A stretch of DNA of 64,000 bases from positions 3,136,001-3,200,000 of the forward strand of contig OY968796.1 of NCBI GenBank assembly GCA_963695545.1, written 5' to 3'. Below are positions 1 through 23,099 of the stretch, one piece after another. The notes under the pieces are model-generated. The model saw only the letters and a program-made list of their open reading frames with translations. It had not been told where the DNA came from and ran no database searches. The DNA is from Terriglobia bacterium (GTDB lineage: Bacteria; Acidobacteriota; Terriglobia; Acidiferrales; UBA7541). Position numbers and translations under genes: made by a program. Position 1 is the first letter of the stretch. Each line of letters begins with the position of its first letter.

Positions 1-1379
1 CCTGTGCCTAACAGCTTTCTGTCCAACTCCTTGATCTCGGTCTCCCGCGAAGAAATCGCCCTCATTAAAGCGGGCAGTGGCCCCTCTTGTGCCACTGCTT
101 CAGCCAGCCGTGTGAGTTCCGTCTCAACTTCAGACCTACGCACCCGAACATCATCAACCTGACCTGACATTGCCTTGAGCTGACAATCCAATTCGAGTTG
201 GAACTTGACGAGTACATAGTGAATCGCCTCTGGCTGGAGGACGGATTCCTGAAGGCCAGCCAGAAGGTACGGCTCGATTCTGTCATTTCGTTCACGTAGA
301 GTATTTGGGCAGGTGCCCCGGTTAAAGTTCAACGGACAGCCCCAACGTGGATGGTTATTCTTGCCATGCCCAGTGATGATGCGCAGCTTGCCTCCGCACT
401 CAGCGCAGACCAGAATCCCAGAAAAGAGATAATTGGATGAAGCGCTCCGCGACAATAGACCATTGGGCCTGCCCTGAGCGTAGACTGCTCGCATCCGCAG
501 CAACCGATGCTGGACCTTTTGCCAGAGTTCCGCTGACACGATCCTTAACTGCGGAGCTTCTCGAATCTTCCATTCCTTTTCTGGACGTGGCCGGGCAACA
601 CGTCGGTTCGTCCCTGGCACTTTCACAAACTTCGCTTTGTTCCAAATCACTCTTCCGACATATCGTTCGTTGTACAGCATTTCTCGGACAGCAGTTGGAC
701 ACCATCCAGCAGCCCCACGACCCTTCCGAGGTCTCGGCGACTGAACGTTCTGGGCGTTCAAAGTCTTCGCAATACGTTTCAGTGAATAACCAGACGCACT
801 GATCTCGAAAATGTTTCGCACTACGTCTGCCTCGGACTCATTTATGACCATGCGTTTCCCATCTACGGTGTCTACGCTGGCATACCCATAGGTGCGCCCA
901 CCCGTATGGCAACCGCGCAGGAAGTTTCCTTCGAGTCCACGATGAGTTTTTTTCGCCAGTTCTTTAACGTAAAGAGAATCCACCAATCCATGGACGGTCA
1001 TCTGAACGTCAGATTGTTCTGAGTGTGTATCGATCCCCTGTGAAACAAAGATGACACGCAAGCCCTGAAACCGTAGATTCTCTACCGTACTCATTGCTTC
1101 GGACTGTCTTCTGGAGAAGCGGCTTGTGTCGTCCACGAGAATTATGTCGAACGGTCTAGGGCGGGAATATGCGGCATTCAACAATCTTTGAAAGGCCGGG
1201 CGGTCTGAACCGGATCCACTAAGCCCTTCGTCAATGTAGATGTAATCGTCGAGAACATGGAATCTATTCCCTTCGGCAAACTCTCTGCATTTCCGAACTT
1301 GGTCATATGGAGAAAGGTGGCTCTGTTTATCAGTCGAGATGCGACCGTAAACAGCACACCGATTCATCGCCTCTGTCAT
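1..1379 (-). CDS. Large serine recombinase/integrase (3' end beyond window)
   Basis: Manual translation from ATG 1379/1367: MTEAMNRCAVYGRISTDKQ...DEGLSGSGSDRPAF...VDDTSRFSR...GGRTYGY...YLFSGILVCAECGGK (zinc ribbon)...coiled coil ELTRLAEAVAQ. Start and end segments share a frame; probably missing from the ORF track because there is no stop in the window. Confidence 0.92.
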   Translation of the reverse strand, partial: MTEAMNRCAVYGRISTDKQSHLSPYDQVRKCREFAEGNRFHVLDDYIYIDEGLSGSGSDRPAFQRLLNAAYSRPRPFDIILVDDTSRFSRRQSEAMSTVENLRFQGLRVIFVSQGIDTHSEQSDVQMTVHGLVDSLYVKELAKKTHRGLEGNFLRGCHTGGRTYGYASVDTVDGKRMVINESEADVVRNIFEISASGYSLKRIAKTLNAQNVQSPRPRKGRGAAGWCPTAVREMLYNERYVGRVIWNKAKFVKVPGTNRRVARPRPEKEWKIREAPQLRIVSAELWQKVQHRLLRMRAVYAQGRPNGLLSRSASSNYLFSGILVCAECGGKLRIITGHGKNNHPRWGCPLNFNRGTCPNTLRERNDRIEPYLLAGLQESVLQPEAIHYVLVKFQLELDCQLKAMSGQVDDVRVRRSEVETELTRLAEAVAQEGPLPALMRAISSRETEIKELDRKLLGT

Positions 1380-1507
1380 TCCGCCTCCAATGCGCTGCCC
1401 GCCAGCTTCTTCTGATTCAAGGAAGCAATGTACCGCTCAACAAGGATGGGAACCACCACTTCCTTAAGAAATTCTTTGACCTCTGGGCGGACTTGACGAA
1501 CTGTCAT
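1376..1507 (-). CDS. Small protein (43 aa) translationally coupled to the recombinase
   Basis: MTVRQVRPEVKEFLKEVVVPILVERYI...; its TGA overlaps the recombinase ATG (ATGA). Confidence 0.45.
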   Translation of the reverse strand: MTVRQVRPEVKEFLKEVVVPILVERYIASLNQKKLAGSALEAE

Positions 1508-2391: not shown

Positions 2392-3137
2392 GTGAGACAC
2401 TGGCAAGTTCTGAAGAAGATGGTGGAGGAGCCGCACAGAGCGAAGATGAATACCAACGGTGTAGTTAGGGTGGGCGGCGGTCGCGGTTTCGTCATGGAAC
2501 ACCGTGTTTACTTCGATTTCGGCGACGGCAATGGCCACAGGAAACTTTGCCGCAACGTAGTGGTCACGGCGTCGCACTGCCTGCCCCACGCGCCCAAGGT
2601 GATGTCCGGCGTTGACTACCAACGGGCGACCTACCCGAAACTGCTCGCGCCGCTCGGCGAGGAGCCTTCTGTCTGGACGCAATGTCTGTTTTTCGACCCG
2701 GTCGCGGACGTTGCCGTGCTCGGCGAACCCGACAATCAAGACTTGTCGGACGAGTGGGACGGCTATCACGCGCTGGTGAGCGGGCGCAAACCGTTCGCGA
2801 CTGCCGCGCCGGAAAGCGGCGAAGGGTACATGCTTGCTCTGGACGGTGTCGCGTGGAAACCCACTGCTCTGGAAGTCCACCTGACCATCGGGGGAACCGG
2901 GCTTTCGACGGGAGAGACGCTTGGCGGGCAGTCCGGCTCTCCGATCTTGGACAGAAAGGGACGGGCGGTCGCGCTGGTCTCGATGGGCAGTGAGACCACA
3001 AGCAACGGAGTGCGGAAGCCGATGGAACGCTGGAACGGCCGCAGCCCATCCTGAAACTCGCGCTGCCGCCTTGGCTGCTTCGAGCGACGAAGGAGCACTC
3101 GCGCAAGGTAGCTCAGCTAGCGGCGGTGCGCGGATGA
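2392..3137 (+). CDS. Trypsin-like serine protease (one frameshift near 3039)
   Basis: Triad motifs VVTASHC, DVAVL, GQSGSPIL. Adding one C at 3039-3040 gives GPQPILKLALPPWLL...* ending in an ATGA overlap with the next gene. Start uncertain (2392 or 2446). Confidence 0.75.
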
Positions 3138-3685
3138 GCCAAGCCACTCAGACACGAAAAGCACGGATTTCTGCCAAACGATCTGCTTCAAGGAACACCT
3201 CAATGCCTAAAGCACCGAATTCCGTGAGTCGCCGGGTGTTCGTCGCGAGGTTCACCGACTGCCCTGAGTACGACATCAAGCGCGGATGGTCGGCGTCAAT
3301 GGATTACGACGGCGAGACCAAGTATGAGGCTCTATTCTCATTCTTGTCTGAACACCCGAGCATCGACCCCGATTCCGTTAAGGTCGGCTGGCACAGGCAC
3401 CACAGGAGATGGGTAATCGTGCATAACCCGCGAGGACTTTCTTGCTGGCGGCTCAATGGGACGACGGAAGAGCAGGCTGTCGATGAGGCGCGTCGCTGCT
3501 GCGTAGCCGGGGAAATCGCGAGGGAGGGGTACGGCTACGTGACCGAGGGGCGAGTCCGGCTGGTGGCGAAGCTGGACGTTCGCGACCGCGACGGCAACCC
3601 GCTGTGCGTTTTCACGTGCGAGGGCACAAGCCCGAAGGCCCCGCTGACTTGGTACATGGAACACATGGGGGGCACGGATGAGTAA
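3134..3685 (+). CDS. Hypothetical protein
   Basis: ATG 3134 overlaps the reconstructed protease stop; globular-looking ~183 aa. Confidence 0.6.
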   Translation: MSQATQTRKARISAKRSASRNTSMPKAPNSVSRRVFVARFTDCPEYDIKRGWSASMDYDGETKYEALFSFLSEHPSIDPDSVKVGWHRHHRRWVIVHNPRGLSCWRLNGTTEEQAVDEARRCCVAGEIAREGYGYVTEGRVRLVAKLDVRDRDGNPLCVFTCEGTSPKAPLTWYMEHMGGTDE

Positions 3686-4511: not shown

Positions 4512-4817
4512 GATATGGACAACCGAAAATGTGAAAACATGCAGGTACCTCCAAGACGAATTCTTCCCGGGTCGGGACAAGGATAGCTGCTACCAGTGCG
4601 TCATGGATCACCCGAGGCGGAAGCGTAAGAAGCTAGAAGTGCCCGGAGTGTGGAAACGAAACGCGCAGCCTGATTATGTGGGACAACAAGCAAGACGTGC
4701 GGACCCTGCCGGGAGAAGCGTGCCGGAAACGAAGGTAAGCTCAAAGCCGAGCGCAAGGCGTTCAGGCAAGAAGCCGAGCAAGTATGGGCGCTGAGCGGAC
4801 ACCAAAAAAGCGAAGCG

Positions 4818-5989
4818 ATGAAGCCTCGGCCGGGGCGCATAGAACTTGTGCAGCACATGGATAACGTCGAGATCAAGGTCGGGCAGGACACAGTCAAGCG
4901 GGAGTTCATGATCAAGGTCACGGCGTCAATGCCGGCACGGTCAAGCCCAAGGCGCAGAAATGGCTATGGCAAAATCGTGTTCCCGCGGGTGCGATCACTT
5001 GGGGCGTCGGCAAGCCCGGCAACGCCAAGAGCCTGTGGGCAACCGACCTCGCGGCGCGTGTATCTTCGGGCGCGGATTTTCCCGATGGCGCGAAGAACGA
5101 GGGGCGCGAAGAAGGTGCTGATGTACTGCGGTGAGGACGACTGGAGCGCACCGTAGTGCCGAGGCTCATCGTCGGGGCTAACCTCGACAACATCACCCTG
5201 CTGGACAACCAATCGTTCGACGTGTTCGACAAAGAATACAACCGCGTTGACCGACGCTCCATCGACCTGGCCAAGACTGCGACACGCTGAACCATCTGGT
5301 ACACGACCACCCGGAGATCGCGCTGCTGATCCTCGATCCCACCACCGGGGTTTACGGCAGTAGAAATACAAATCACGACAAGGACATGCGCCCGATCATG
5401 AACGATCTGCGCGATATGTGCGAGAAGCGCGGGCTGACCATCGTGGGGATCACGCATACCAACAAGCGGGGGAGGCGGCGGCGATAGACCAAATCCAAGG
5501 CGCGTCGAGCATCGCTGGAGCGGCCCGCGGCGCATGGCTCTTCACCCGCGACCCTGAATCCGACGATGAGCACGCGCATGTCATGTCGTGCATCAAGTCC
5601 AACCTCAGCGACAACCATGATGGGCTGAAGCTGTTGACCAAGGCTGTGAAGGTCAATGATGAAGTGGGTGATCACCCGATGATCGTATGGGGCGAGAGCA
5701 CCAAGATGCAGGCGGACGAGGCGAACCAAGCGTTGAAGGAGAAGCGCGAGACCAAGGGCGGCAAGCGGACGCCTCCAAAATCGGCATCCTCGCGATGCTC
5801 GGCGAAAAGCCGATGCTGTCCAAGGACGTATACACCGCACTGGAAAAGCAGGGCTTCTCGGGCGAGACCGTGAAGCGGGCTGCCGCGGAACTGACCAAGG
5901 AGTTCCAAATCCATCGCAAGCAGCAAGGCGGTCGCTGGTACATGGTGTTGGCGGAGCACCTGTATGAGTTCGAGCAGAAACGAGGCTGA
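4818..5989 (+). pseudogene. AAA_25/RepA-like helicase with C-terminal winged helix, multiply frameshifted (may begin ~4381)
   Basis: Stitched frames give Walker A GKPGNAKS, YCGED, Walker B IALLILDP, IVGITHTNK, QIQGASSIAGAAR, and C-terminal MLSKDVYTALEKQGFSGETVKRAAAEL...GGRWY. Confidence 0.8.
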
Positions 5990-6200: not shown

Positions 6201-6947
6201 GCTTGGGCGTTTGGCGATCACATCTCGCGTGCTCTCTCAAGCTTTTTGCGGCACCACTCAGCACCAATTCCGCGACTTTCAAATCCATTTCGTGAAGCAG
6301 AGTTTTGGCAGTCCCGGCAGCATTGCTGATCTCGCCGATCACACGAAATTGCCATCGTTAATGGCAAATCGTGCTGATGCACCTTGTAACCAAGAACGTG
6401 GAGTCATGCCGAAAGCCGCTCAGAGCCGAGTCTACGGAGGAAATCTAAGAAATGCGTGCAAGACCGCAGGTGAAAACATACCTGCTCATCACCAAGCTCC
6501 AGCGCTGGGCGCGTATCGGGGCGTATCCTAGCTGTTATCCCAACTGCTCGGCGTCAATCGCCCGCCGCAACTACGCACGGCTGTACGCACGACACGAATC
6601 GTTGGCCCGCAGCATAGGGCTTACCCCAATTTCGGCTTATCCTCCGCTTTGATCCTGAGAGTCTTCGAACGATGGCATACCCACGCATGGACGAAATGGT
6701 CTGGATCGGCGGCGCTGGTGGTGGTTCCCCGGAAGGCAGATCACCGTGGAGTCGCACTTCGAGTGGAAAAACGGCAGGGCTTACCTGCTGGAACCCGATG
6801 GCACCGCCATCGAGGGAATTCTGTTTGTCGGCGAAGTCGCGTCCGATTGACGCGTCAACTCTGAGCGACCTTTCAGCGTCCGCAAGCCGAGATCAATCGT
6901 CCTCTTTTGCGTTGGCTCGATATAATGGTGGTTGGGAAAGGGCAGGT

Positions 6948-7733
6948 ATGAACTCGGAAAAGAAACGGATTGAGGCTTACATGCTTGCCGCCGCCCGCAA
7001 AGCAGGCGTGCCAATACCGACTGGCGAAACGCCCGACGAGGAACCAGATTTCAGGTTCAACGATGAAACTCCGGCATTGGGAATTGAGCTTTCCGAGGTG
7101 TTACGCCCTGCCAGTAGCAATCACGGGATTGTGCCCGTTGAGGAGGATTCCTTTCATAAGGACATCATCACGAAAGCCCAACTCCACTACTACGATGCGC
7201 CTGATGCCAAGCCTGCTCATATTAGCGTTTATTTCACGAACACTAGGGGTGGGAAACGCAACAAAGCGGGACTGGCTCGTGCTCTTGCTGGGTTTGTGAA
7301 GGCTAATGTTCATCGGGCGAATCCTTTTGTGAGTTTGTACCGACCCGAAACGCCGGATGGTTTCGATTCCATTGTCATCAGTGCTGAATCAAGAGATTGG
7401 TGGTGCGGAGAAGGCGGAGGTTACACGCTTGATGACATACGCCCTCAAGTTGCCGCCAGAATCAGCGACAAAGACAAACTGGTGCAGACTTACCGCGCCA
7501 ACTTGCCAGAGGGCGCGAACGTTTGGCTGCTCCTTTACACTGGCGTCACCGTAGCTCGAAGCATGATGATTCCGCACGGAATAGAGACGTGGAAATTCCC
7601 GTTCCGGTTTGACAGAGTGTTTTGGTTTACCGCTTTAGAGGGACAATTTGCGGAGATTCAACGAGCAGAAGCCGCGAACGTAGCGGGGCTACCCATGCCC
7701 TCCCGCTCGTTTTCATCGACTATTGTGCCCTGA
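6948..7733 (+). CDS. Putative PD-(D/E)xK restriction-endonuclease-fold protein
   Basis: EEPDFRF...GIELSEV motif near the N-terminus; TATAAT at 6921-6926; intact ORF. Confidence 0.55.
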   Translation: MNSEKKRIEAYMLAAARKAGVPIPTGETPDEEPDFRFNDETPALGIELSEVLRPASSNHGIVPVEEDSFHKDIITKAQLHYYDAPDAKPAHISVYFTNTRGGKRNKAGLARALAGFVKANVHRANPFVSLYRPETPDGFDSIVISAESRDWWCGEGGGYTLDDIRPQVAARISDKDKLVQTYRANLPEGANVWLLLYTGVTVARSMMIPHGIETWKFPFRFDRVFWFTALEGQFAEIQRAEAANVAGLPMPSRSFSSTIVP

Positions 7734-8061: not shown

Positions 8062-8761
8062 ATGAAGAAATCTGACAAGCAACGCATCCGCGAAACGGCT
8101 CTGGCAATGGACAAGCCGTTCACCGTGCAGACCCTCAAGGGCCGTCTTGCCCGACCTTGTGTTCACATCGGCTGCGCCGAAAGGCAGGGAATGGCGTCGC
8201 GTGCTGGACGAGATGATGGCGGAAGGTGTTCTAGTCGTCCACAGTCAGGGTGCGAGCATCCCAGCGGGTGGAAATGAAAGCGACGACAAGCAGAGGCAGT
8301 ATGTCGTCTCCACGGCGGCAACGGCACAGGCACGAGCCGAGACACCGACTGTATTGGAATCTGTTCGGGCAGAGGTGGACGCAGGCGAGTATGAAGGGCT
8401 GTCGCTCAATGATGACGCGGTTGACCGAATCTACCACGGGCAGCGCAATGGCAAGGTACGCGCCGAGAAAGGCGACATCTGGGATATGGCAAGGCATGTG
8501 ATCGCGACCCGCAGCGGTCGCAAATTGCCCGACATCCTGCCGGATGTGCTCTCTGTCCTGCGCAAGCGTCTGCCCGGCGATTCGTTCGTGGTCGCGGACT
8601 TGGCGCACGAGTTGCGCACTGGCGTAGACGGACGCCTCGGACGCACCTGCGAGAAGCTTTACAAGCAGGGCGTGCTCGACCGCAAGAGGGATGAGGGGGA
8701 GAGTGGACGTTGGCGTTACACAATTAAAGCCGACCTTTGGCAAAAGTCGGTGCTCGCTTAG
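8062..8761 (+). CDS. Hypothetical protein with winged-helix-like ends (frameshift ~8148)
   Basis: MKKSDKQRIRETALAMDKPFTVQTLKGRL joins PDLVF...; C-terminal FVVADLAHEL...CEKLYKQGVLDRKR...RWRY. Confidence 0.55.
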
Positions 8762-8808: not shown

Positions 8809-9477
8809 TCACCATTTTCTTACGCGTTCGCGATAACGCCGAATGACACGCTTGCTCACTTTGCCTTCGGCATCCTCGATTAGCTCTCGCATGGAATGTT
8901 GCGCTGCAAAGCATCCATAGATTGCGTGCCTGCCCGAACTCTCGTCGATAATTCTGTGCAGTTGCTTAGCAGAGAACGGGCGAAACCCCAGCAGCCCCCG
9001 CGCTGCAATCGGGACTTCGGTCTTGAAATCGTTCGCTGCCAAGAACGCCTGAATCGCACCATCGCGGGCGATGGCCCCGAATTCCTCATTCTTGCCCGAT
9101 GCACGCAGCTACATCCCAAGCAGAGGCGTACGACGATTCTTCGTTCCATTTCAACGCTTGAATGTGGTCGATGAAGCCGTGAGGATTCTCATCGCGGTGG
9201 ATTTTGACCGGAATTATCGCTTTTCCGAGGGCGAGTGCAAACCCGGTTTCTTGGTCTGTCCAGTCTGATTCAGAGAAGGCCTTGGTAAGCAGCGGGATGA
9301 AAATGTCGCACTCGCGCAGAGCCTTTCTAATCTCGGTGCGCCAGCCGGGCAGACGGGACGGATGTCTTCGTGGGCCAGAAACGCGTCGAAGCCAAACTCT
9401 TCAAGACCCGCCTTCAGTCCTCCGGCGAGCTTTTTCGCCTTATGCGAGTAGCTTAGAAAAATGTTTAGAGGTTCCAT
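8809..9477 (-). CDS. TIR-domain protein (~222 aa after correcting homopolymer indels at ~9345-9355 and ~9095)
   Basis: IFLSYSH...AFLAHEDIRP...WRTEIRKALRECDIFIPLLTKAFSESDWTDQETGFALALGKAIIPV...PHGFI; the catalytic Glu (WxxQE) is present. Confidence 0.85.
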
Positions 9478-9478
9478 G

Positions 9479-10253
9479 TCATTTCTCGGGCTCCGCAGGT
9501 AAGACCGCGTTCTGCGCCGAACGTACGGCTTTCACATAAATCACGCCATCTGCGCCGTTCGGTAATTTCCCTTGATAGGAGTGCGGAACCGTGACCAAGA
9601 ACGCCTGACTACGAGGAGTTACAGCCGTCTTGTGACTGGCTTCAATGATCCTGAAAAGCCCCTCGCAGTATCCTCCGAGATGGTTGCAGTACGCTTCTAG
9701 TTTCATGTTCAGTTCCCGTTCCTGCACCGCCTTTTGTATCTCCACTTCGTCGAGCGGAGCACGTTGTTCAGGGGTCTTGGCATCCAACGGCGGAAAAACA
9801 CGGGCAATGAATGCGTCAGTGGAACCGTCGTGCAGCGTGACAATCACCCCGGCAAACTGGTGGGACAAATTTCGATACTCCTGAATCTCGTTGACAGTCG
9901 GGTCGTCGTCGAGGGCCTTGACGAGTTCGTCGTGCCGCCCTTTCGTCACAATACCTTCCTGCTTGCACCGTCTGTATGCCGTGCACAGCAATTCAGCAAG
10001 ATGGCGAAGCTGCCAGAGAACGCCTGCGAAATGCGCACGGAACACAGTCGCGTCCTCCTGAAGCATCTCACGTTAGCCTGCGAGAACGGTTGAGTCGCTG
10101 TGTGTGCGCGCTTGCTCCCAGCCAAGCACATCGCACCCGTGTCCGCATAAACCCTCACGTACGCTGCGTGATAAAGGCAGACATTCAGCGTGTGCCAGAC
10201 CTCGGCGACCATGCCGTCGAAGTCTTGATTGGGAGTGAACGTACCCTGTCCAT
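9479..10253 (-). CDS. Helical hypothetical protein with HEPN-like RNxxH motif (indels at ~10250, ~10132, ~10075)
   Basis: Reconstructed MGQGTFTPNQDFDGMVAEVWHTLNVCLYHAAYV...EMLQEDATVFRAHFAGVLWQL...IQEYRNLSHQ; stop lies 1 nt before the TIR ATG. Confidence 0.5.
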
Positions 10254-10369
10254 GTTTTGCGCTTCCTCGCCTCAAACAACGGCTCGAACGACGCTTTGGA
10301 ATCACCTGCTCGCTCACAAAGGTGCTTCGAGCGGGGGCGTAAATCATCGCGGAGCGATTCGCCGGGCTT

Positions 10370-11909
10370 CAAGCTAATGGAGCGGAGGAGGAACGCCGTC
10401 GCAACTGGATCGAGATCGACAGCTTGAACGCGATCTTCAGTTGACTGCGCTCGTTCGGATACGGCAGCACTTCCCACTTGAGTGCGGCTCGTAGAATCCG
10501 TTTCGTCCGCCCGTCGCCATAAAATCCAACTGACGCTTTCCGGCTATCGTCCTTAAAGAAATCACAGCCTTCCGAGGTTAGCAGTTGTTTTTGTTGGGCA
10601 CTACTACGCTGTACCTCAGTTTTCCGAAGCGGCGATCACGGGTCAGAAGATGAACGTTTCGGGCGTCGAAGACCCTGCCATCCGGCCGCCGGAATTTTTC
10701 CGTGGGGTTCGTGAAGCCGCAAAATGACCCATTCTAACGACTGGTAAACAATTCCGAGTTCATTTCCCTTTGGATCGGCATAGGCGACGAAAATGTTGTA
10801 CCCCCCCTTTCTCATCTCTCGGCTTGCAGGCTGATCAATAAGGTAGCCGCTGAACCCGTGTGGGTTCTACCATCCGTAGAACGCCTGATTGGGTCAGCCC
10901 AACGCAGAGTGCAGCCGCGTGTGAGCGGATTACCTTCTGTGCATGCTCGGAGCCGCAGACAGACGCCTTGACCTTCGTACCAGCCGTACTGCCAAAACAA
11001 ACGCAGCCTGCAATGTATTGCCGAAGGACAAACCGTAAGCAAATTCGGAACTGCCGAGCGGACTCGCCAGCCATTCAAAGGCGACAACCAAATTGCGTGC
11101 CTCAGCAAGGGAAATCTCCTTGACGGTCGCGTTTTTGAAATCAGAGGCTAATGCCATTTTTTCGGCAAGGAGCGGATCGGGTTGTTCTGCCATACGTTCG
11201 CGGTTCACGCGCTGGAAGGCTTTGCCATTTGCTGGATAATCCTCAAAGTCTTTGGAAATTTGTTTCTCGCACTCCCCAGCGTGCTTCGCCAAGTTCCTCA
11301 AAGCAAGAGTCAGCTTCTTGGTGATCGTCGGGCTGAGCCGACTGCGAAGCTGGGTTACTTTTTCCAGCTTCTCCCTACGGCTGGCCGATTCGAGGTCGCG
11401 AATCAACTCTGACGCAACGAGATTCACGTCCGGCTCCGAAATTACGCCAGTCGGCGTGACGATCTCTCTGATCTCGCGAAGCAAGCCGCTGTAGTCAGTT
11501 CTCCGTTTTTCTCTCGCGCCTGAACGAGAGCCTTTTCAAACGTAGCATCATCAACGAGGCGCGCGATTCTCTGCCACTTCGCGCTCTGATCCTTCGATAT
11601 ACCGATTTCCTCTAGTGTGGGCGGATTGGCGGTCGGTCTGCTCGACCGCCTTTTGACTCCATCCTTACGCGGTCGTCCTTCACCCCTTGTGCCGGGGTTC
11701 TTTTCCATTTCAAGCAAGAGTTGTCCTGTCCTGCGCTCGGCACGAATTCTTATCTCCGCTGCCTGATTCTGGAGTTCAAAGTCGCCCGCCTGCTTGGCGT
11801 AAACGCGAACGGCTTCCGCTTTGTCACGGATCGCCTTCACCTCATCGACACGGTGGGCGGCGGCGAGCGCACGTCGGGCGGCGTCGTAACGAATGAGCGC
11901 GACAGTCAT
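10370..11909 (-). CDS. Mom-family (GNAT-like) DNA adenine-modification protein fused to an N-terminal helical domain; several indels, 3' end approximate
   Basis: Stitched: MTVALIRYDAARRALAAAHRVDEVKAIRDKAEA...VKEISLAEARNLVVAFEWL...YGLSFG.YIAGCVCFG...LTRGC...AATLLIS...YNIFVAYADPKGNELGIVYQSLEWSFCG...LKWEVLPYP(K). Confidence 0.72.
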
Positions 11910-11980
11910 ATTCAGAGAATTCTCTGGCAGCAAAGGACAACGTCAAGCTACGAGAGCCGTGAAGTGGTATCTTTTTCGGC

Positions 11981-13017
11981 ATGACATCGGACAGGCGCAC
12001 GGTTTTCGTAGTGGGAGCGGGTTTCTCCGCTGATCTTGAATACCCGCTTACTTCTCAACTGCTGCCCCGAGTCAGAAATCGTTTCGACAAAGCGTTTTCG
12101 ACGCAGTTTGACGAGGTGGTCAGATTTCATCACCCCGGATGGGACAGGCGACGGGCTACGCTTCCCGACATCGAACAACTGTTGACGGAATTGTCTGCAA
12201 ACGAAGAGTTGCTGCCTGCGGTTCGTTCGGACTCCCGTTCGATAGCGTTACTCTCGAACGGTTTCGGGAGGAATTGCTGCGCCTCGTTGCCGTTTGGTTC
12301 CACGAAATCCATCAGAAACGCTCTTCGGCGGGCGACAGATCATTGGATCGCTTTCTGAAGCTTATAGGCGAATCAGAGAATCCAGTGGTGATCTCTTTCA
12401 ACTGGGATTACGAGTTGGACGAAGCGTTGTTCGGCAAGAATGGCAAATCCCCAGACCTAACCCGCGAAAGTTACGGGCTAAACACGGGAAAGCTCGCGAG
12501 TCCCGCGTTGCTGAAACCACACGGATCACTGAATTGGTATCCCTCTCGTTCCGGCAAGCACATACAACGTGACTTGCGATTACGGCTGTGGAGATCATCT
12601 GGGTCGGAGCCGTCCATGTACTGTTTCATGCGATGGCGGGCGGTACGCTCGACGCAGGGACGGCGATATGTACCGTGGATTGTTCCACCGACACACTGGA
12701 AACGATTCGACCATTCGATGATGAAACACATTTGGAAGCGGTGTGTGGATACTCTGAGCACCGCTCGTCGAGTGTATTTTCTGGGTTACTCGCTGCCGCT
12801 TGCGGATTGGCATTCCAGATACATTTTTCGCTGTGGGTTCCATAATCAAATTGAAGGACTACCGCTGGCGGGTGGAGGGCGTGCGAAGCCAACCCGATTG
12901 GCAAAGGTCACGGTGGTGAACCCGGATAGCGTCGCCGTTCAGAGGATAGAAACGACGTGTGGAGTGAAAGCCCGCTGGATCGACGACACGATCAGATCAT
13001 GGCTACGATCCCGTTGA
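11981..13017 (+). CDS. SIR2-like (SIR2_2) NADase-family protein (single frameshift at 12229-12230)
   Basis: VFVVGAGFS, ISFNWD, LKPHGSLNW, IVPPT, FLGYSLP.AD motifs; adding one G joins the two ORFs. Confidence 0.85.
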
Positions 13018-13338
13018 TTGAGCGTATTTCGAGCACGATGTGTCATCGGTTTTTGCTTGTCCCTGCCCTGCGGCTGCGTCCGACCTCGATCTGCTCGCGT
13101 TTATTTAACCTATCTTCCAGCGTCACCGTAAGCTGCTGATGTCAAAGGGCGAATTTCGCCGATTTTGACAGCCCAAATTTCATCCGTTAGATGAACATTA
13201 CGGGAGCCGGGCGATGAAACCGTTTTCGGCTGAGAATAATCTTCATCTCTCTACTGCTTCGCTCGCTGGAAACTGACCTGACCGGGGTTTTTTGTACCAG
13301 CGGGAGTGAGAGAGAATTCACTCTGGAGGGAAGCTGGT

Positions 13339-13617
13339 ATGCCGATGAGGAGATACAAGCCGGAGCAGATCGTCACGCTGCTGCGGCAAGTTGAAGTTGA
13401 AATCGCCAACGGAAAGAGCACCCCACAAGCCTGCAAGGAAGCCGAGATCACCGCGCAGACCTACTACCGCTGGCGGAAGGAATACGGCGGCCTGAAGTTG
13501 GATCAAGCGAAACGCCTCAAAGAGTTGGAGCGGGAAAACGCCAAGCTGAAACGGTTGGTGGCGGAGCTTTCGTTGGAGAAGCAAATTCTGAAGGATGTGG
13601 CAGAGGGAAACTTCTAA
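13339..13617 (+). CDS. IS3 transposase OrfA
   Basis: YKPEQIVTLLRQ...QTYYRWRKEYGG...LKELERENAKLKRLVAEL (HTH + leucine zipper). Confidence 0.93.
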   Translation: MPMRRYKPEQIVTLLRQVEVEIANGKSTPQACKEAEITAQTYYRWRKEYGGLKLDQAKRLKELERENAKLKRLVAELSLEKQILKDVAEGNF

Positions 13618-14483
13618 GCCCTGAGCGGCGACGTAGCGCGGTGGAGCATGCACGCGAGAGCTACCAAGTATCAGAGCGGCATGCCTGCCGGTTGCTGGGG
13701 CAGTGGAGAGGGACACAACGCTACGAGGTGATCCACCGAACGGATGAAGACGCGCTGACGCGAGACATCGTGGCGCTGGCCAGCGAGTACGGGCGCTTCG
13801 GCTATCGGAGGATCACGGCGCTGTTGCAAGCACGGGGCTGGTATGTGGGCAAGGATCGGGTGCAGCGGATCTGGCGGCGCGAAGGGCTGAAAGTGCCGCA
13901 GGGACAAAGGCCGCGAGGAAGGCTGTGGTTGAACGACGGATCGTGTGTTCGTCTCCGGCCGGAACGAGCCAACCATGTGTGGAGCTACGATTTCGTGAGC
14001 GCGATGACCCACGACGGCCGAACACTGCGAATGCTGACGCTGATCGACGAATACACGCGGGAGTGCCTGGCGATCCGCGTGGCGAGAAGGCTGGGGAGAT
14101 ACGAAGTGATCGAAGCGCTGGCGGACGTGATGCTTTACCGGGGAATTCCGGAACATATTCGCTCGGACAACGGCCCGGAGTTCGTGGCCAAGGAGCTGAG
14201 GAGTTGGCTGGCGAAGGTGGGAACGGGGACGCTGTACATCGAACCGGGAAGCCCTTGGGAGAATGGCTACTGCGAAAGCTTCAACGGGAAATTGCGCGAT
14301 GAATGTTTGAACGGAGAGATTTTTTACTCGCTGAAGGAAGCGCAGATCGTGATCGAGAAATGGCGGATGGTGTACAACACGCTGCGTCCGCACTCAGCGC
14401 TGGGCTACAGGCCACCGGCGCCGGTGGCCTGTAGCCCCTTGGTGCCGCCAATTCTCGGTTCGCCGTCGACGGCTGTGATGTAG
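13614..14483 (+). CDS. IS3 transposase OrfB (DDE), reached by -1 frameshift
   Basis: WSYDF, IDEYTRE, SDNGPEF, PGSPWENGYCESFNGKLRDE, RPHSALGY. Confidence 0.95.
   Translation, partial: LSPERRRSAVEHARESYQVSERHACRLLGQWRGTQRYEVIHRTDEDALTRDIVALASEYGRFGYRRITALLQARGWYVGKDRVQRIWRREGLKVPQGQRPRGRLWLNDGSCVRLRPERANHVWSYDFVSAMTHDGRTLRMLTLIDEYTRECLAIRVARRLGRYEVIEALADVMLYRGIPEHIRSDNGPEFVAKELRSWLAKVGTGTLYIEPGSPWENGYCESFNGKLRDECLNGEIFYSLKEAQIVIEKWRMVYNTLRPHSALGYRPPAPVACSPLVPPILGSPSTAVM
14402..14437. repeat. Perfect 36-bp palindrome inside IS orfB
   Basis: GGGCTACAGGCCACCGGC|GCCGGTGGCCTGTAGCCC, no loop. Confidence 0.95.
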
Positions 14484-14523
14484 ACTCTCTCATTCACCGT
14501 GGTACAAAAACTCGGGCTGGTCA

Positions 14524-16336
14524 AGAGCCACGGCGGGTTGCCGATGATGAAGTCGAATTGTTGCTTCAGCATCGCGGGTCTGTAGCTGTTGCGGATGATG
14601 AACGACCAGATGGTGTTCTTCTCCTGTCGGATCAAGTCCGCCAACTTTTCGGTGAAAGACCAAAGCGCGTCAACAATCGCTGCATGCTCAAGCAGTTTGT
14701 ACAATTCGGGAACATTGACCGTCAGATACTTGTTTAGTGTCGTTCTGCTTTCCTTCTTCGATTTTGCGTGCGCCTCGGCGACCGTCGCGCAGGCGGCAAT
14801 CGCGTCGTCAAAAAGCTCCGGTGAGTGGATAAGCCAGTCCGGCATCGCGACCGTCTTTTCATTCTTCTCGCCGAACTGAATTTCGAAACCGCTCAACTTC
14901 TCGTACAGATTCTGCTCGACTTCGCGCGGAAGGAACAGCGAGTCCGCCAGATACACGGGGATGTTGACGGGCTTGCGTGCGGCGTTCACGAGCTTGCCGA
15001 GCGCGAGAACGTATGTGGCGCGGGAGATAGTAACCGCGACGGGGTGGATGTCGATGCCCTGAACCTTGCCGAGTATCATTCGCAGCTTGTCGTTGTCAGT
15101 GCCATCGGGATTGTGGTTCAGGAAGTGGTGGATCGTGGCACGCAGGAAGCTGCCCGAGCCGCAGCTTGGATCGAGCACCGCTTTGTAGCCGTGCTTCGGT
15201 AAAAGCTCGTCCACGATGCGTTCGCACAGCCAGTCGGGCGTGTAATACTCGCCAAGGTCGTGACGATCCTTGGGGTCGATCAACTGCTGGTAGACGCCCT
15301 TGAGCACGTCCTCCTTGATGTGAGACAGGTCATAGTCCGCGAGGTGTGAGAGGATGCGCTCCCACATCGGGGCGAGAATCTTCTCGGCTTCCACGCTGCG
15401 AATCCAGTGAAAGAAGTCATCATCCACGAGGTTCGCGAGCCGCTTGGACTCGAAGTAGCGACCCGAGAGCACATCCTTCGCGACCTGCCTCAGGTTCGCG
15501 GTGCTCTTGCCCTGCGACAGGGCAGCCCAAATCAGCAGCCGGGCGATGCTCGCGAGATAGGTGTGCCGCAGGAACAGGTTCTCAAGCTCGGAGATTTCCT
15601 GCGCGGTCTCTATGTCCCGCACCGCCGTGGTGTCCTCGGTCAGGCGACCGTAGGTGACGGTGAGGTACCGCTGCCACGTCTCGAACGCGAGCTTGGCTTC
15701 CGATCCGCCGCTGACCTTTGCCCACGCACGCTTGAGCGCAGCCATGCCCTCGTGGAACTGGAAGCTCTGGCTGCCGAACTCAAGCTGGAACTGCTCGGCG
15801 GTCGCCTCTACCTGCTGCTCACGAAACAGCAAACTCGTGAGCCACAGCCAAAACTCGCCCAGCGTCTCATCTGCCAGCTTGAAGTCGCTTAGTTCGTCCA
15901 GCACGACGTTCTCAGGCGTCGGCTCCTTCCCCTCGGGAAGCACGGGGCGGTAGCGAATCCAACGGCTGCCGTCCGTCGCTATCGCCAGCAGTGGACGCAG
16001 CGCGTTTCTCTTTTCCTTCTGCCAAGTCCCGGCGACGTACTCGCAAAGCTGACCCTTCGCCTCTTCGAGCGTGGCGGACAGAGACTTCTCAAACTCGATG
16101 ATGGCGTTGCCGTAGTAGGCGTCGGCGCGTCCTCTCTTCTGTCCCACCGCTTGGTCGATGCGGATCAGTTTCTCGACCCCACGGGAGAACTCGGAGACGG
16201 CGTTCGTGCCGGGGAAAAGCTCTGCGATTACGGCGGCGAAGCGCGACCGCTTGGCGGCTTCGTTGGGGAGTGTCTTGACCTCGCGGGCGTAGGCCCGCAA
16301 CGTCTCCTTGACCTTTGGCTCAAGCGTCTCAGGCAT
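14524..16336 (-). pseudogene. Type IIG-like fused restriction endonuclease / N6-adenine methyltransferase, truncated by the IS
   Basis: N-terminal GRADAYYGNAIIEFEK nuclease motif, GEYYTPDWL, VLDPSCGSGSFL, FIIGNPPWL, then the IS end; the C-terminal region is absent. Confidence 0.88.
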
Positions 16337-16421
16337 TGGCGTGAATGATAGCAGCGAGGGCAAAGAAAAGGGGTGCATCTTGCGATGCTCTTACGGCATC
16401 AGCAACTTTTCTTGTTCCGCT

Positions 16422-17892
16422 TTAGCTGGAGGCGAGTCGAAGTTTTTCTAACAGCTTTAGAAGAGCTAGCGTATCCAGAGCACAATAGTCGAGCAGAGCT
16501 TTCTGAATTCTCTCGCGCTCGCCGCCATCAAAGCAGCCGCGCAAGAGCGCCTCCCACGCCAGTCCGGCTTCCTGCCCGTTCGCAACCGTCATCCCGTCGT
16601 AGCTCATCTCAGGCACGAGAGCGGGCAGCACGGACTTGAGGCTGTACGATCCGGCGAACGCGGGGTGGTAAACATGTGCCCGCACGATGGGCAGTAGATC
16701 GAACAGGCGGTCTTGGATTGTTTTGATCTGATCCGCGAACCGAGGAAACCAAGTCGCGAGTTCCGAAAGACGCTTAGATTCGAACGACGAATACACGACG
16801 ATGCTGCCGCTTTCGCCGAGTGCAGCGCAGAGGGAGCTAATGAACTCGCGCCGAGGATCGCTGCTACCTGCGGCAAGAAACTCGTAGTGCTCTGGCTCTG
16901 CGCCCGCTTGTCGCTGCACATGGACTGACCATTGAAAGGGCAGGTGGTCGTAGGGTCGCATTCCCGCGAACGGCGGAATCGCCCGATTCAGAGTCTCGAA
17001 ATCGGCGAAGTACAACGGGTAGGTCAACCCGTCCAACAGATCGCGGAGTCCATCGCTGAACCACGGTCGTCCCGTCTGCACGCACGTCGCAGCACGGCGT
17101 TGAATGTCGCTCAACTGGAAATCGTGAGGGATGTCCCGAATTGACTCGACGCCAATCTCCTCAAGCGCATCGACCGCGCTGGCGTGGATGCGCGGCAAAA
17201 ATCCGATGTGATCCTGCGAGCGCGGCGGGTTGCAGTGATCGAAAAATTCGCAAGTGACGGGGGCGGTACAGTGCGCACCAATTTTGATGTTGGGAGGAGT
17301 CGGCTGCTCCAGAATCCGAAATTCCGACCGTAGCTGCAACGTCAGCTTGTGCTGCAACCCCTCGACTCGCCGGGCCACATTGCGGATGCGAAAGAATTCT
17401 CGCGGGTCGATTTCACCGCCCGGATAAACATAGTTTCGGTTGATGTGAGCCAGAGATGCCGAAGCCATGTCCAGCCCTGACCGCGAAACCACGCGATACT
17501 GGATCGCTACGTCTTCGAGGTGGTGATCCTTGAGATCGGTCGTTGACTTGACTTCAATCAATTTCCAGCGACCGTCGAGCCGTCGCTGTAGGACGTCCAC
17601 TTTCACGAGCACGTTCTTGTGCTCAAACACCCCCTCGAAAATCGCTGGCACGTCCGGGTTTGCCACCAGTTCGCGAGTTGCGCGGATCGCTTTGTCCAGC
17701 CTGCCGTCACTCGGAACCTCGACCCCGCCCGGAAAAAGCTGCCGGGCAAGCAAGACCGACCTGCCGCCCCTGTTCGATGATGGCTTGATCAGCAGCGTCC
17801 GGCGCGACTGCCAGTTCTGGTTCGTGGACGAGCAGATACAAACGTTTGGCGCACTGGCGGCCAGCAATAACTTTTGTTTTGCTGATTCTCAT
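16422..17892 (-). CDS. DUF2779-type RecB/Cas4-like nuclease (frameshift ~17750)
   Basis: ISKTKVIAGRQCAKRLYL, VDVL...LIEVKS, HC..PVTCEFFDHC, ADFET, LPFQWSVH, GSYSLKSVLP, YCALDT. Confidence 0.85.
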
Positions 17893-19257: not shown

Positions 19258-19896
19258 TCAGGCGCATGCAGCCGTAGCGTGCTGAGAACGGGCAGCGGCG
19301 TACACAGTCCCAACTGACAGATTCATTTCGTTGGCTATCCACCGCCACGAATGCCCGGAGGCTCGCAGTGAGTTGATCCGGTCAACATCGACAGCTTTTC
19401 TCGGTCGCCCGAGGCGTTTGCCCTTCGCCCTAGCATTTCGCAATCCTGCCCGCACGCGCTCAACTATCGTCTCTCGCTCGCTTTCCGCTACCGCTGCGAG
19501 AACGTGAAAGACAAATTTGCCTGATGGAATCGTCGTATCAATTTGCTCGATCATTGCCACAAAATTGATCTTCAGCGCGTGAAAGGTCTCAAGTGCTCGG
19601 CACAGGTGTGAAACTGAGCGCGAAAAACGGTCGAACCGCCAGACGACGACCACGTCGAATCTCCGCGCATGAGCATCCGCCATCAAGCGATTCAGTTCGG
19701 GTCGGGAATCCTTCCTGCCCGAGACGCCCTCGTCCACATAGCAGTCAAAAATATCCCAGCCCCGTCGCTGACAGTACTCGCGCAGTTCTCGTGTCTGCAT
19801 CGCCGAGTCTTGCCCGTGACCTATCGTCGAAACCCGAGAATACACGGCAGCTTTGATCTTTTGCGGGCCGCAATCGCGAACAACCTGCAATCCCAT
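19258..19896 (-). CDS. Small serine resolvase/invertase with C-terminal HTH
   Basis: VYSRVST, DEGVSGRKDSRPEL, VWRFDRFSRS, ERVRAGL...GKRLGRP, SWRWIANEMNLSVGTV. Confidence 0.92.
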   Translation of the reverse strand: MGLQVVRDCGPQKIKAAVYSRVSTIGHGQDSAMQTRELREYCQRRGWDIFDCYVDEGVSGRKDSRPELNRLMADAHARRFDVVVVWRFDRFSRSVSHLCRALETFHALKINFVAMIEQIDTTIPSGKFVFHVLAAVAESERETIVERVRAGLRNARAKGKRLGRPRKAVDVDRINSLRASGHSWRWIANEMNLSVGTVYAAARSQHATAACA

Positions 19897-20990: not shown

Positions 20991-21003
20991 GCCCCCGCAA
21001 CCA
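20991..21003 (+). other. Putative att site: duplicated 3' end of tRNA-fMet
   Basis: GCCCCCGCAACCA matches the typical initiator-tRNA 3' end including CCA; no T-arm or cloverleaf upstream; terminator directly downstream. Confidence 0.7.
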
Positions 21004-21193: not shown

Positions 21194-22012
21194 TCAGGCT
21201 TTCTTCGCCTTCCCGGGAGGAACGAGCGCGACCGAGGCCTCGGTGGTGAGCAGCAGGAATGTGAACGTCTCCTGCAGATACAGGCGCACAGCGGTGTCGG
21301 TGTGGCTGAGATAGCCGATCGAGACGTCCTGTCCGATGTGCAGGTCGAAATCTCCGCCGCGCGTGGTCAGCACGAAAGCGCCGCTGATCGCGGGCGCCCA
21401 GATGATGGCATCCTTCACGAGCCGCTTAACATGCTCGAGTACGGGATATCCGTGGTCGCTGGTTTCGGCGAGCGCCGTGTACGCGTCCGCGCCGAGCAAC
21501 ACCGAGTACGGGCCATTGACGCCCACCAGACGAAGTTGGCTCAGGCCTTGCGCAATCGCGTCCGGGTATTCCAGTACGTTTGCGGGGAGCGTCATGATCG
21601 GATTGCTGGTGCCTTGACGAATGCCGCCGATACCCGCGGCGGTGTAGCGATCGAAAATCGCGCAGTCTTCGGCGAAGGCGATTTTCTGCGCGGCGTCCTT
21701 CGCGGGTTGCCAATTCGCGTCGTTCGCGCCGCGCTCAACATCGTCAACGTCTTTGCGCTCCAGCTCGAAGGGAACACGCAGCTCGACCAGCGCCTTAACC
21801 TCGCGTTGTCTTGCAAGGACGCCGTCCGCTGGTGGCGTGATCGTCTTCAGGTGGCCCGTGCCCACGCCGGAGAGACCTGTGCCCGCCGCGGGGTGCACGT
21901 CGACGACGCGGCGACCGGCGATGTAACGCTTGAACGTGCGCGAAGTTTCCTCTTCGATTTGCGCCCACGCGGGGTCGGAAATGGGAGCGAGTTCGCGATG
22001 CAGGTTATTCAT
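21194..22012 (-). CDS. Family 1 encapsulin shell protein (Linocin M18-like)
   Basis: MNNLHRELAPISDPAWAQIEEE...GRRVVDV...ELRVPFEL...RGGDFDLHIGQDVSIGY. Confidence 0.96.
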   Translation of the reverse strand: MNNLHRELAPISDPAWAQIEEETSRTFKRYIAGRRVVDVHPAAGTGLSGVGTGHLKTITPPADGVLARQREVKALVELRVPFELERKDVDDVERGANDANWQPAKDAAQKIAFAEDCAIFDRYTAAGIGGIRQGTSNPIMTLPANVLEYPDAIAQGLSQLRLVGVNGPYSVLLGADAYTALAETSDHGYPVLEHVKRLVKDAIIWAPAISGAFVLTTRGGDFDLHIGQDVSIGYLSHTDTAVRLYLQETFTFLLLTTEASVALVPPGKAKKA

Positions 22013-23099
22013 CTTGGCTTTCTCCTTTGAGAGAACCGATGTCGAGCGAACCATCGTTGCTCGGCGAAGTTGTTGGCGCGGTTTCGTCCGCTGACGGTTC
22101 GGCGGAAGGCGCCGCATCGGCAGCCCCGTCGTCGCTCACGTCGTCAAGAAATGTCGCGGACGGCACGAAGAAAAGATTTCCGGTGACCGCGCGGCTGAAG
22201 TCGAGCAGCCGGTCGTAGTTGCCCGGCGGGCGGCCGACGAACATATTCTCGAGCATTAGTTCGATCGTGCGGGCCGAACGACTGTAGCCGATAAAATAAG
22301 TCCCGAATTCAGCTTCGGTGGGCCGGCCAAAGGGCATGTTGTCGCGCAGAATTTGGAGTTGTTTGCCGTTCTCGAAGATGATGTTGAGCGAGCTGTGCGA
22401 GTTGCTCGGCTTGACGGATGCGTCGAGCTCGATATCGGAAAGTTTGTGGCGACCGATGATCCGCTCCTGCGCTTCGACGGGAAGCGCATCCCATCCGGCC
22501 ATATCATGCAGATATTTCTGCACGATCACGTAGCTGCCGCCGGAGAACGCGGCGTCCTCTGCGCCGATCAGCACGGAGTCAACCGCTTCCTGGCCCCGCG
22601 GATTCTCCGTGCCGTCGACGAATCCGATGAGATCGCGATCGTCGAAATAACGGAAGCCGTGCACTTCGTCCGCGGGCGTAACCGAATCGCCGATGCGCGC
22701 CATAATCTGCGTCGCGAGCTCGAAGCACAAATCCATGCGCTTCGCGCGAATGTGAAACAGCAGATCGCCCGGCGTGGATACCGCGTGGCGGTCACCGGAT
22801 CGAATCTCGCGGAATGGATGAAGCTCTGCCGGTCGCGGCGAACCAAACAAGCAGTCCCACGCCTCCGATCCGACGCCCATGATGCAGGAAAGGCCGGCTT
22901 CGAGATCGCGCATCTCCACGGCGCGAACCACCGCGGCGAGGTCCGCGGAGAACGAGCGCAGCGCGGAGCGACTCTCGGAGCCCGGCTTTATGGTCACCAC
23001 CAGGAAAATTGCCGCACGGGTGAGCGGCGCGGAAACCGGCTGCGCGAGAGCGCTCAAACCGGCTGCGGCGTTCTGTGTGCTCTTCGGATCGGGCTCCAT
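22005..23099 (-). CDS. DyP-type peroxidase with encapsulin cargo-loading peptide
   Basis: GFVDGTENP, ILRDNMPFG; C-terminal DGSLDIGSLKG; 8-bp overlap with the encapsulin gene. Confidence 0.96.
   Translation of the reverse strand: MEPDPKSTQNAAAGLSALAQPVSAPLTRAAIFLVVTIKPGSESRSALRSFSADLAAVVRAVEMRDLEAGLSCIMGVGSEAWDCLFGSPRPAELHPFREIRSGDRHAVSTPGDLLFHIRAKRMDLCFELATQIMARIGDSVTPADEVHGFRYFDDRDLIGFVDGTENPRGQEAVDSVLIGAEDAAFSGGSYVIVQKYLHDMAGWDALPVEAQERIIGRHKLSDIELDASVKPSNSHSSLNIIFENGKQLQILRDNMPFGRPTEAEFGTYFIGYSRSARTIELMLENMFVGRPPGNYDRLLDFSRAVTGNLFFVPSATFLDDVSDDGAADAAPSAEPSADETAPTTSPSNDGSLDIGSLKGESQDE

Follow-up and report, generated by a model that had tools for sequence, protein, structure and literature searches.

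A Mom-family gene as the probable anchor of a defence hotspot in an integrative element of Acidobacteria

The genome of a Terriglobia bacterium (assembly GCA_963695545.1) carries, in a window of 64,000 nucleotides (contig OY968796.1, positions 3,136,001 to 3,200,000), four fragmented genes at positions 8809..13017: a Mom-family gene, a HEPN-like gene and a TIR gene on one strand, and a SIR2 gene on the other. The Mom gene is best explained, with a probability of about 0.68, as the anti-restriction self-modifier of a capsid-less Acidobacteria integrative element, where it anchors a defence hotspot with independent cargo. A first-pass annotation of the window had offered an anti-restriction gene beside a defence hotspot as one of two readings, and this one has gained support from (i) the enzymes to which the N-terminal module of the Mom protein is joined, (ii) the turnover of the gene slots on both sides of Mom, (iii) frequent matches to defence genes in those slots, and (iv) the genes of the element, which include an integrase and lie between recognisable island ends.

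Each of the four genes aligns nearly end to end to an intact relative when the alignment is frameshift-aware, with X placed at the breaks (P, L and G numbers denote proteins, loci and genomes). Mom aligns to P0117 at 75% identity with seven shifts (near 11485, 11018, 10926, 10828, 10725, 10609 and 10457), and an eighth probably lies near the stop. The HEPN-like gene aligns to P0002 at 87% with two shifts (10228, 10073), the TIR gene to its counterpart in L009 at 91% with two or three (9351/9344, 9097), and the SIR2 gene to P0278 at 80% with one shift within the gene (12234). The fragments were thus rightly read in the first-pass annotation as four genes broken by single-base indels, and its coordinates and layout stand as well: three minus-strand genes, Mom and HEPN-like separated by 115 bp, TIR beginning 1 nt after the HEPN-like stop, and SIR2 starting divergently 71 bp from Mom.

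The Mom domain is recognised through intact relatives: P0105 matches Pfam Mom (PF25680) with 62.8 bits against a cut-off of 27.1, and the window fragment alone reaches 14.1 bits. There are 136 longer Mom relatives, most of 480-520 residues, and PF25680 is found in 117 of the 120 listed. The first Foldseek match of a Mom model (mean predicted local distance difference test score, pLDDT, 63) is Mu Mom (8bv8; E 1.1e-8, root-mean-square deviation (rmsd) 5.7), followed by a GNAT protein at E 2.6e-4; Mu Mom is also the only PDB sequence match of the family (E 0.047). What the family shares with Mu Mom (PF25680, PDB 8BV8) is the GNAT fold, residues R111, S124 and D149, conserved in 93/93 relatives in an alignment at 16-17% identity, and an insertion located where Mu Mom has a helix-turn-helix-like insert. 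Mu Mom moves glycine from Gly-tRNA to the N6 of adenine, for which R111, S124 and R151 are required (PMC13219725).

The first 145 residues of the Mom protein form a module that recurs on other enzymes in phages and metagenomes (phrog_33995). Among 74 of the 86 proteins found, near-duplicates and short ones being excluded, the module is joined to MT-A70 (29), Dam (15), an N6_N4 methyltransferase (4), DUF5131 (2) or nothing (24), and hence to a DNA methyltransferase in 48/74. In Mu-like prophages, Mom and non-specific adenine methyltransferases substitute for each other at one position (PMC3299994). The strongest case for the fusion as a mobile element's modifier of its own DNA comes from the presence of the module on methyltransferases together with this swapping. 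The adenine methyltransferases of phages and prophages (MT-A70, Dam; Hia5/Hin1523; ParB-methyltransferase loci) have the N-terminal module in common with the fusion and differ in the catalytic domain, which here is Mom. The full-length fusion is found at none of the loci in IMG/VR, where 66 loci match the N-terminal part only.

The fusion also exists in split forms. Short Mom-only genes occur at L194:9361-11108, L195:8971-10750, L193:9139-10806 and L196:8992-10472. A ParB-like gene immediately precedes them in L194 and L195, and in L196 the N-terminal module is encoded by a gene of its own ahead of Mom; the ParB-like genes recall the ParB-methyltransferase loci of PMC4738411. One element carries a second Mom-like gene (L049:17420-18310, phrog_1384) 7 kb from the fusion. 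Remnants of the 5' and 3' ends of Mom, with other genes between or beside them, are seen at L052:8568-8648 and 11184-11246, L060:9742-9924 and L101:1861-2077, and the ends of Mom may be recombination scars. Bacterial Mom loci are mentioned in PMC7824862.

The surroundings of Mom were compared across 46 other loci (43 from metagenomes, 3 from genomes; 487 kb in all, 27 loci of at least 9 kb, a few of them partial or near-duplicate). Its recurring neighbours are element genes: SRAP at 9 loci, a resolvase at 9, one tyrosine integrase family at 8, and primase genes. Integrase or invertase matches are present in 10/16 long loci, and among 107 proteins of these 16 loci (105 of the 118 listed, plus 2) none matches a head, tail or packaging family at E 1e-12. 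The slots beside Mom turn over. The nearest upstream gene is divergent in 17/23 scorable loci, and 18 families fill the 23 slots; the nearest downstream gene represents 21 families in 22 loci.

Many of these neighbours are defence genes. PADLOC matches at E<1e-20 lie beside Mom in 11/29 loci, the neighbours being hand-picked and without control loci. They include NsnA/NsnB (presumably Menshen), TIR-APAZ with a short Argonaute (which we take to be SPARTA), PD-T4-7, a dGTPase, a GmrSD-like gene and a Type III methyltransferase, and further a Dsr1-like gene, an Argonaute-associated restriction endonuclease, PDC-S06, PDC-S21 and PDC-M57B. Pfam matches near Mom are to Nmad2/Nmad3, DarT/NADAR, RES, HNH, OGG-like and RiboL-PSP-HEPN families. 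Nmad2 is near Mom in 4/46 loci (L051:10866-12298, L090:3-985, L103 and L114), in two of them with Nmad3; Nmad2/Nmad3 and SRAP (9/46 loci) may be true partners of Mom. A conserved Mom gene with variable, defence-rich flanks in a mobile element is the picture expected of an anchor-gene hotspot, here drawn without a matched control set.

The hotspots of P2 and P4 elements are the closest parallel, with a conserved anchor in a small mobile element and changing defence cargo that includes uncharacterised SIR2, TIR and HEPN genes (Rousset et al., PMC9122126). In the Mom loci, by contrast, it is a DNA modifier that serves as the anchor, Acidobacteria are the hosts, variation extends to both flanks and a helper phage is not known; the integrases differ too, being of the serine type in the window island and of the tyrosine type in most Mom relatives.

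Several points weigh against the Mom gene as an anchoring self-modifier. In the low-identity alignment with Mu Mom, R151 is R in only 15/93 relatives, H58 is E in 93/93 and W181 is kept in 0/93, its site being V/I and that of Y159 F/Y/L; in the window copy R111 and D149 are kept, and an apparent T, next to a frameshift, takes the place of S124. With these changes and ~250 extra N-terminal residues, the family ranks as a variant of Mu Mom rather than its equivalent, and is a predicted modifier as far as sequence can tell. The downstream genes of the window are co-oriented with Mom at a distance of 115 bp, whereas the downstream neighbour is convergent in 15/22 relatives; these neighbours were chosen by open reading frame length and some may be spurious. 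A strong PADLOC match is absent from 18/29 loci, in the same hand-picked set without control loci. Many metagenome loci are short, and partners may lie off-contig. Finally, the divergent Mom-SIR2 junction recurs in a second lineage.

The other reading of the first-pass annotation was a modification-coupled defence system of all four genes, in which Mom would mark self DNA and the entry of unmarked DNA would trigger cell killing by the SIR2, TIR and HEPN-like proteins. Such a system would agree with the close spacing (71, 115 and 1 bp), with short-read variants that span all three junctions, and with the fusion of Mom to restriction nucleases in jumbo phages (PMC7824862). However, the arrangement is not repeated. 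By tblastn and profile searches, the window's HEPN-like, TIR and SIR2 families occur in 0/46 other Mom loci; Mom or SIR2 occurs in 0/15 HEPN-like loci, and Mom in none of 28 SIR2 loci, 24 of them only ~3.5 kb long. Genome G006, which is 100% complete, carries HEPN-like and TIR genes without a Mom match, and the Mom-bearing genomes G480, G590 and G618 are not among the 26/400 with a SIR2 match. The four-gene order did not appear in a DNA search of 400 family genomes (23 of them with a partial match; only two candidates scored per genome), in protein searches of 300-400 genomes or in scans of metagenome and genome loci. The three effectors gave no match to a DNA-reading domain. The sequences compared do not support a fixed system or co-conservation of modifier and effectors, and a four-gene system is highly improbable. 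The first-pass annotation had named homologs that never co-occur as the finding that would speak against its system: the whole set was indeed not found together in the loci and genomes compared, but of the three pairs of adjacent genes, two are seen again, each once or twice.

One of these pairs is Mom and SIR2, which could share a divergent promoter, with SIR2, for example, guarding the modifier or serving as its addiction partner. The over-called N-terminus of the SIR2 relatives P0278/P0399 (80% identity to the window gene) is the antisense of the Mom 5' end over ~33 codons (tblastn E 1e-6), and 24-29/32 codons are compatible for 31/120 Mom proteins, against at most 16/32 for 292 other proteins; the divergent junction therefore exists in a second lineage. 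The antisense match ends after those ~33 codons, so Mom there may be a remnant, and the recurrence is explained by shared descent of one insertion. Given also that the SIR2 family is found in no other Mom locus and Mom in none of the mostly short SIR2 loci, a functional pair appears improbable.

The spacer between the two genes is conserved independently of SIR2: L098, L127 and L128, which lack SIR2, resemble it as far as the SIR2 start codon. An ACTT box lies ~30-40 bases upstream of Mom in at least 70% of 43 spacers. On the cargo side, a -10-like pattern picked after viewing the sequences matches 16/43 spacers (shuffle mean 0.8, maximum 5), and a consensus promoter scan gives 3 promoter-like sites against 1.7 expected. 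A promoter pattern for the Mom side was rejected as written, matching 1/43 spacers (shuffle maximum 3). The 71 bp probably act as back-to-back promoters.

The four genes sit in a 21.25-kb serine-recombinase island at a tRNA-Met gene (Table 1), within a single-contig genome of 4.16 Mb and Acidiferrales type; the named relatives of their proteins are mostly from Candidatus Acidiferrales. On this strand the 12-bp att repeat occurs in the genome only at the two island ends, and one further copy lies on the other strand. No phage structural family was matched among 25 window proteins, and an empty integration site was not shown in five same-genus genomes.

Table 1. Features of the island and its ends, in window coordinates.
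Feature	Position	Strand	Remarks
attL	259-248 bases before window		12-bp repeat of the tRNA-Met 3' end
Large serine recombinase	1..1436	-	Island integrase; 575-residue open stretch from 1436, ending 288 bases before the window inside tRNA-Met
Replication helicase-like gene	4674..5989	+	Several pieces; P-loop motif; related to the primase/helicase gene of L115; presumably AAA_25
TIR_2 gene	8809..9477	-	~221 codons; unannotated C-terminal domain; 2-3 frameshifts
HEPN-like gene	9479..10253	-	~257 codons; four-helix bundle, invariant R-N-x-x-H, predicted homodimer; 2 frameshifts
Mom-family GNAT gene	10369..11909	-	~500-510 codons; start ATG 11909, stop codon 10369-10371; fragmented in this assembly; N-terminal helical module common to phage DNA methyltransferases, then a helical linker and the Mom domain at the C-terminus
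Mom-SIR2 spacer	11910..11980		71 bp; similar in other Mom loci though the divergent gene differs
Stand-alone SIR2-like gene	11981..13017	+	~345 codons; sirtuin motifs intact; 1 frameshift
IS3-family element	13274..14523	+	9 genome copies at 99.9-100%; no target duplication seen
Type IIG restriction-methylation gene	14405..16378	-	Cut by IS3; ~620 of 1100 profile positions left
DUF2779 gene	16422..17867	-	Also near Mom in L080, L082, L086 and L098
Small serine resolvase	19258..19896	-	Resolvase near Mom in 9/46 loci
attR	20992..21003	+	12-bp repeat of the tRNA-Met 3' end; right island end

The missing half of the Type IIG gene is absent between SIR2 and IS3 and no target duplication is seen, which suggests a deletion that may also have removed a partner of SIR2. 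The island further carries a trypsin-like gene and three intact open reading frames without a Pfam or NCBIfam family (6672-7733, with a weak match to phrog_35865; 8147-8761; and 2921-3685), which are possible further cargo. Just beyond attR, at 21194-23099, lies an adjacent gene pair common to G315, which we take to resemble a dye-decolorising peroxidase and an encapsulin. On the other side, in G000 (L186), a 238-residue gene with an HNH-like end motif lies between a tRNA-Gly(CCC), which is 3675-3602 bases ahead of the window, and a 31-bp copy of the tRNA 3' end, 4471-4441 bases ahead of it: a second, tiny island. Nothing ties this island to Mom, although Mom uses Gly-tRNA.

The broken reading frames raise the question of whether the cluster is a relic, decaying and non-functional in this strain. 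Open stretches of at least 200 residues account for 36% of the locus, the median across the genome being 95%, and only 6/990 bins are equally low; the breakage is local to this region and extends into the helicase-like gene. Sequencing errors caused by Mom-made DNA marks were dropped as an explanation because of this locality. Real decay would be in keeping with the local breakage, the true interruption of the adjacent Type IIG gene by IS3, the accuracy of the assembly elsewhere (identity among the nine IS3 copies is 99.9-100%, and a stretch of host sequence aligns to G315 gap-free over 1860 bp), and the toxicity of overexpressed Mu Mom, which would favour loss (10.1101/861617). Yet the four genes hold at least 12 one-base indels and not one in-frame stop. 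At four break sites (9091/9095, 9346, 10074 and 12232) short-read contigs depart from the window sequence by a single base, and those that do so at the TIR and SIR2 sites have only 1-4 substitutions. Short-read contigs also span all three gene junctions (9358-9616, 10166-10660 and 11713-11992), and the order of the genes is therefore no artefact of mis-joining. Two of the junctions are spanned at only 91-93% identity, which points to a locus variable in the population. The runs may derive from the same sample as the window and do not count as independent support. Errors in the consensus, at a locus that varies and has thin coverage, are the most likely cause of the indels. A relic is fairly unlikely, and decay here would leave the function of the intact family unchanged.

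Among the cargo, the HEPN-like family is the most distinctive, with 103 close relatives and remote ones at ~25-30% identity. R128, N129, H132 and E18 are invariant in 68/68 members, and the R and H of the motif in 11/11 near and remote relatives. The model (pLDDT 86) shows four helices in a bundle and places the motif where helix 3 ends, the site at which HEPN domains, including Cthe_2314-like ones, have theirs with Rx4-6H spacing (PMC3710099); the spacing here is Rx3H, one residue short of the canonical range. Against HEPN chains the model scores Z 6.2-6.9 (2hsb: Z 6.9, rmsd 4.2, 110 aligned), and generic bundles score up to Z 9.2; structure searches do not set HEPN apart from other bundles. 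A remote relative has Cthe-2314-like HEPN as its nearest named Atlas cluster (0.91), and a close member falls near unnamed clusters and one unrelated family at 0.90. Other searches are negative: Foldseek gives nothing at E<=0.001 with the model, a PDB sequence search with the remote alignment gives 0 matches, Pfam gives none for 68 members (unrelated families come closest, at E 0.004) and no HEPN family for 68 + 20 proteins, and a scan of IMG/VR gives no relatives. A homodimer model, with E18 and H132 in the interface, scores 0.74 against 0.00 for the best of 3 controls; its runs share 82% of contacts at pLDDT >=80, and the mark is reached by 20/30 solved pairs and 1/23 single chains, although the score of such a model may reflect likeness to solved dimers. 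The protein is probably a HEPN-type RNase. 'RxxxH' is not used with HEPN in the literature searched, and the family appears to be a new Rx3H family for which no published description was found, though supplements outside that literature may bear on it. Beside the HEPN-like gene of L018 and L057 lies a three-gene block that presumably resembles an ImuA-like protein with a long polymerase-like gene.

The TIR gene is identified by an intact relative, which matches TIR_2 at E 1e-19; the window gene has the glutamate of a W-x-x-x-E motif, which we take to be catalytic. The same TIR follows the HEPN-like gene in 2/15 HEPN-like loci (L009 and L010, 84-91% DNA identity), unrelated TIR genes flank it in L013 and L017, and L053 and L061 carry the TIR gene but no HEPN-like match, L053 having <700 bases upstream. 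In L009:10821-11321 and L010:10805-11305 a 166-residue gene with a hydrophobic N-terminus lies between the two. It is absent from the window and from the whole window genome, has no Pfam, PADLOC or NCBIfam match, and is a candidate third part of the cassette. That HEPN-like and TIR genes form a functional unit is possible but doubtful.

The SIR2 gene encodes a single domain of 345 residues, with 682 relatives, none of them in IMG/VR, and no match to a second domain. Profile matches are weak (SIR2_2 17 bits against a cut-off of 24.5; PADLOC SIR2 E 6e-6). Four motifs, presumably the sirtuin motifs, are found in 101-106 of 106 relatives and also in the window gene.

Thoeris consists of a TIR protein, ThsB, co-transcribed with ThsA, a SIR2-SLOG or Macro protein. 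The window resembles it in having TIR and SIR2 genes within 3.5 kb, with weak ThsB and SIR2 profile matches. The two genes are, however, on opposite strands with two genes between them, the TIR protein scores 47 bits against the ThcB4 cut-off of 220, the SIR2 protein has one domain only, and the two families are never found together elsewhere at close identity; Thoeris was rejected. So was Sir2-HerA: IS3 follows SIR2, and no HerA match was found among the island open reading frames scanned, although an IS-driven deletion could have removed a HerA-type partner. NCBIfam names none of the four genes above its cut-off.

The anchoring Mom gene suggests the following mechanism. Mom would be switched on when the element excises and replicates, and its N-terminal module would aim it at DNA. 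Like Mu Mom, the fusion may use a charged tRNA to acylate DNA adenines, and the mark would let the element escape restriction in the next host. Such a brief role is consistent with the toxicity and tight timing of Mu Mom (10.1101/861617). The slots on each side of Mom would take up independent abortive-infection genes that protect the carrier, the upstream slot being read from the divergent promoter in the conserved spacer. Here it holds a solo SIR2, probably for NAD+ depletion. The downstream slot would hold a HEPN-like dimer that probably cuts RNA and a TIR protein, travelling as a small cassette; the TIR protein is likely to consume NAD+ or else to signal, with the middle gene or the HEPN-like protein as possible receivers. 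All three are probable abortive-infection cargo acting independently of the Mom mark.

Mom, solo SIR2, TIR and HEPN cargo, and anchor hotspots are all of known kinds. The literature searched contains no description of this gene arrangement, of the Mom fusion family as a hotspot anchor, or of anything joining Mom, integrative element, hypermodification and restriction; Iyer et al. (2009, 2013) on bacterial Mom loci may already cover the family, and a network of >8000 Mom homologues that accompanies PMC13219725 may bear on its novelty. Interest is lowered in that the four-gene system first proposed is unsupported.

It is also conceivable, though unlikely, that the Mom fusions work as tRNA-dependent acyl-transferases on DNA, with an altered pocket (E at the H58 site, loss of R151) that may serve an amino acid other than glycine, and that cellular integrative elements, as opposed to lytic phages, mark DNA with them while adjacent cargo (modification-dependent nucleases, Nmad2/3, SRAP, SIR2, the Rx3H HEPN RNase with TIR) exploits the mark. 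If true, this would mean a new DNA modification in soil bacteria and a modular, mark-aware immune cassette. To our knowledge, the chemistry of Mom was solved not long ago, and for phage enzymes alone. The fusion family, which is widespread, lies in non-phage elements and has an altered active site, offers a test for bulky adenine marks in bacteria and for other amino-acid donors. The Mom gene is, moreover, a practical anchor for finding defence genes: its flanks hold known systems and many unannotated genes in Acidobacteria, a group poorly covered by defence catalogues, and the HEPN-like family, with its close relatives and no Pfam assignment, is one candidate.

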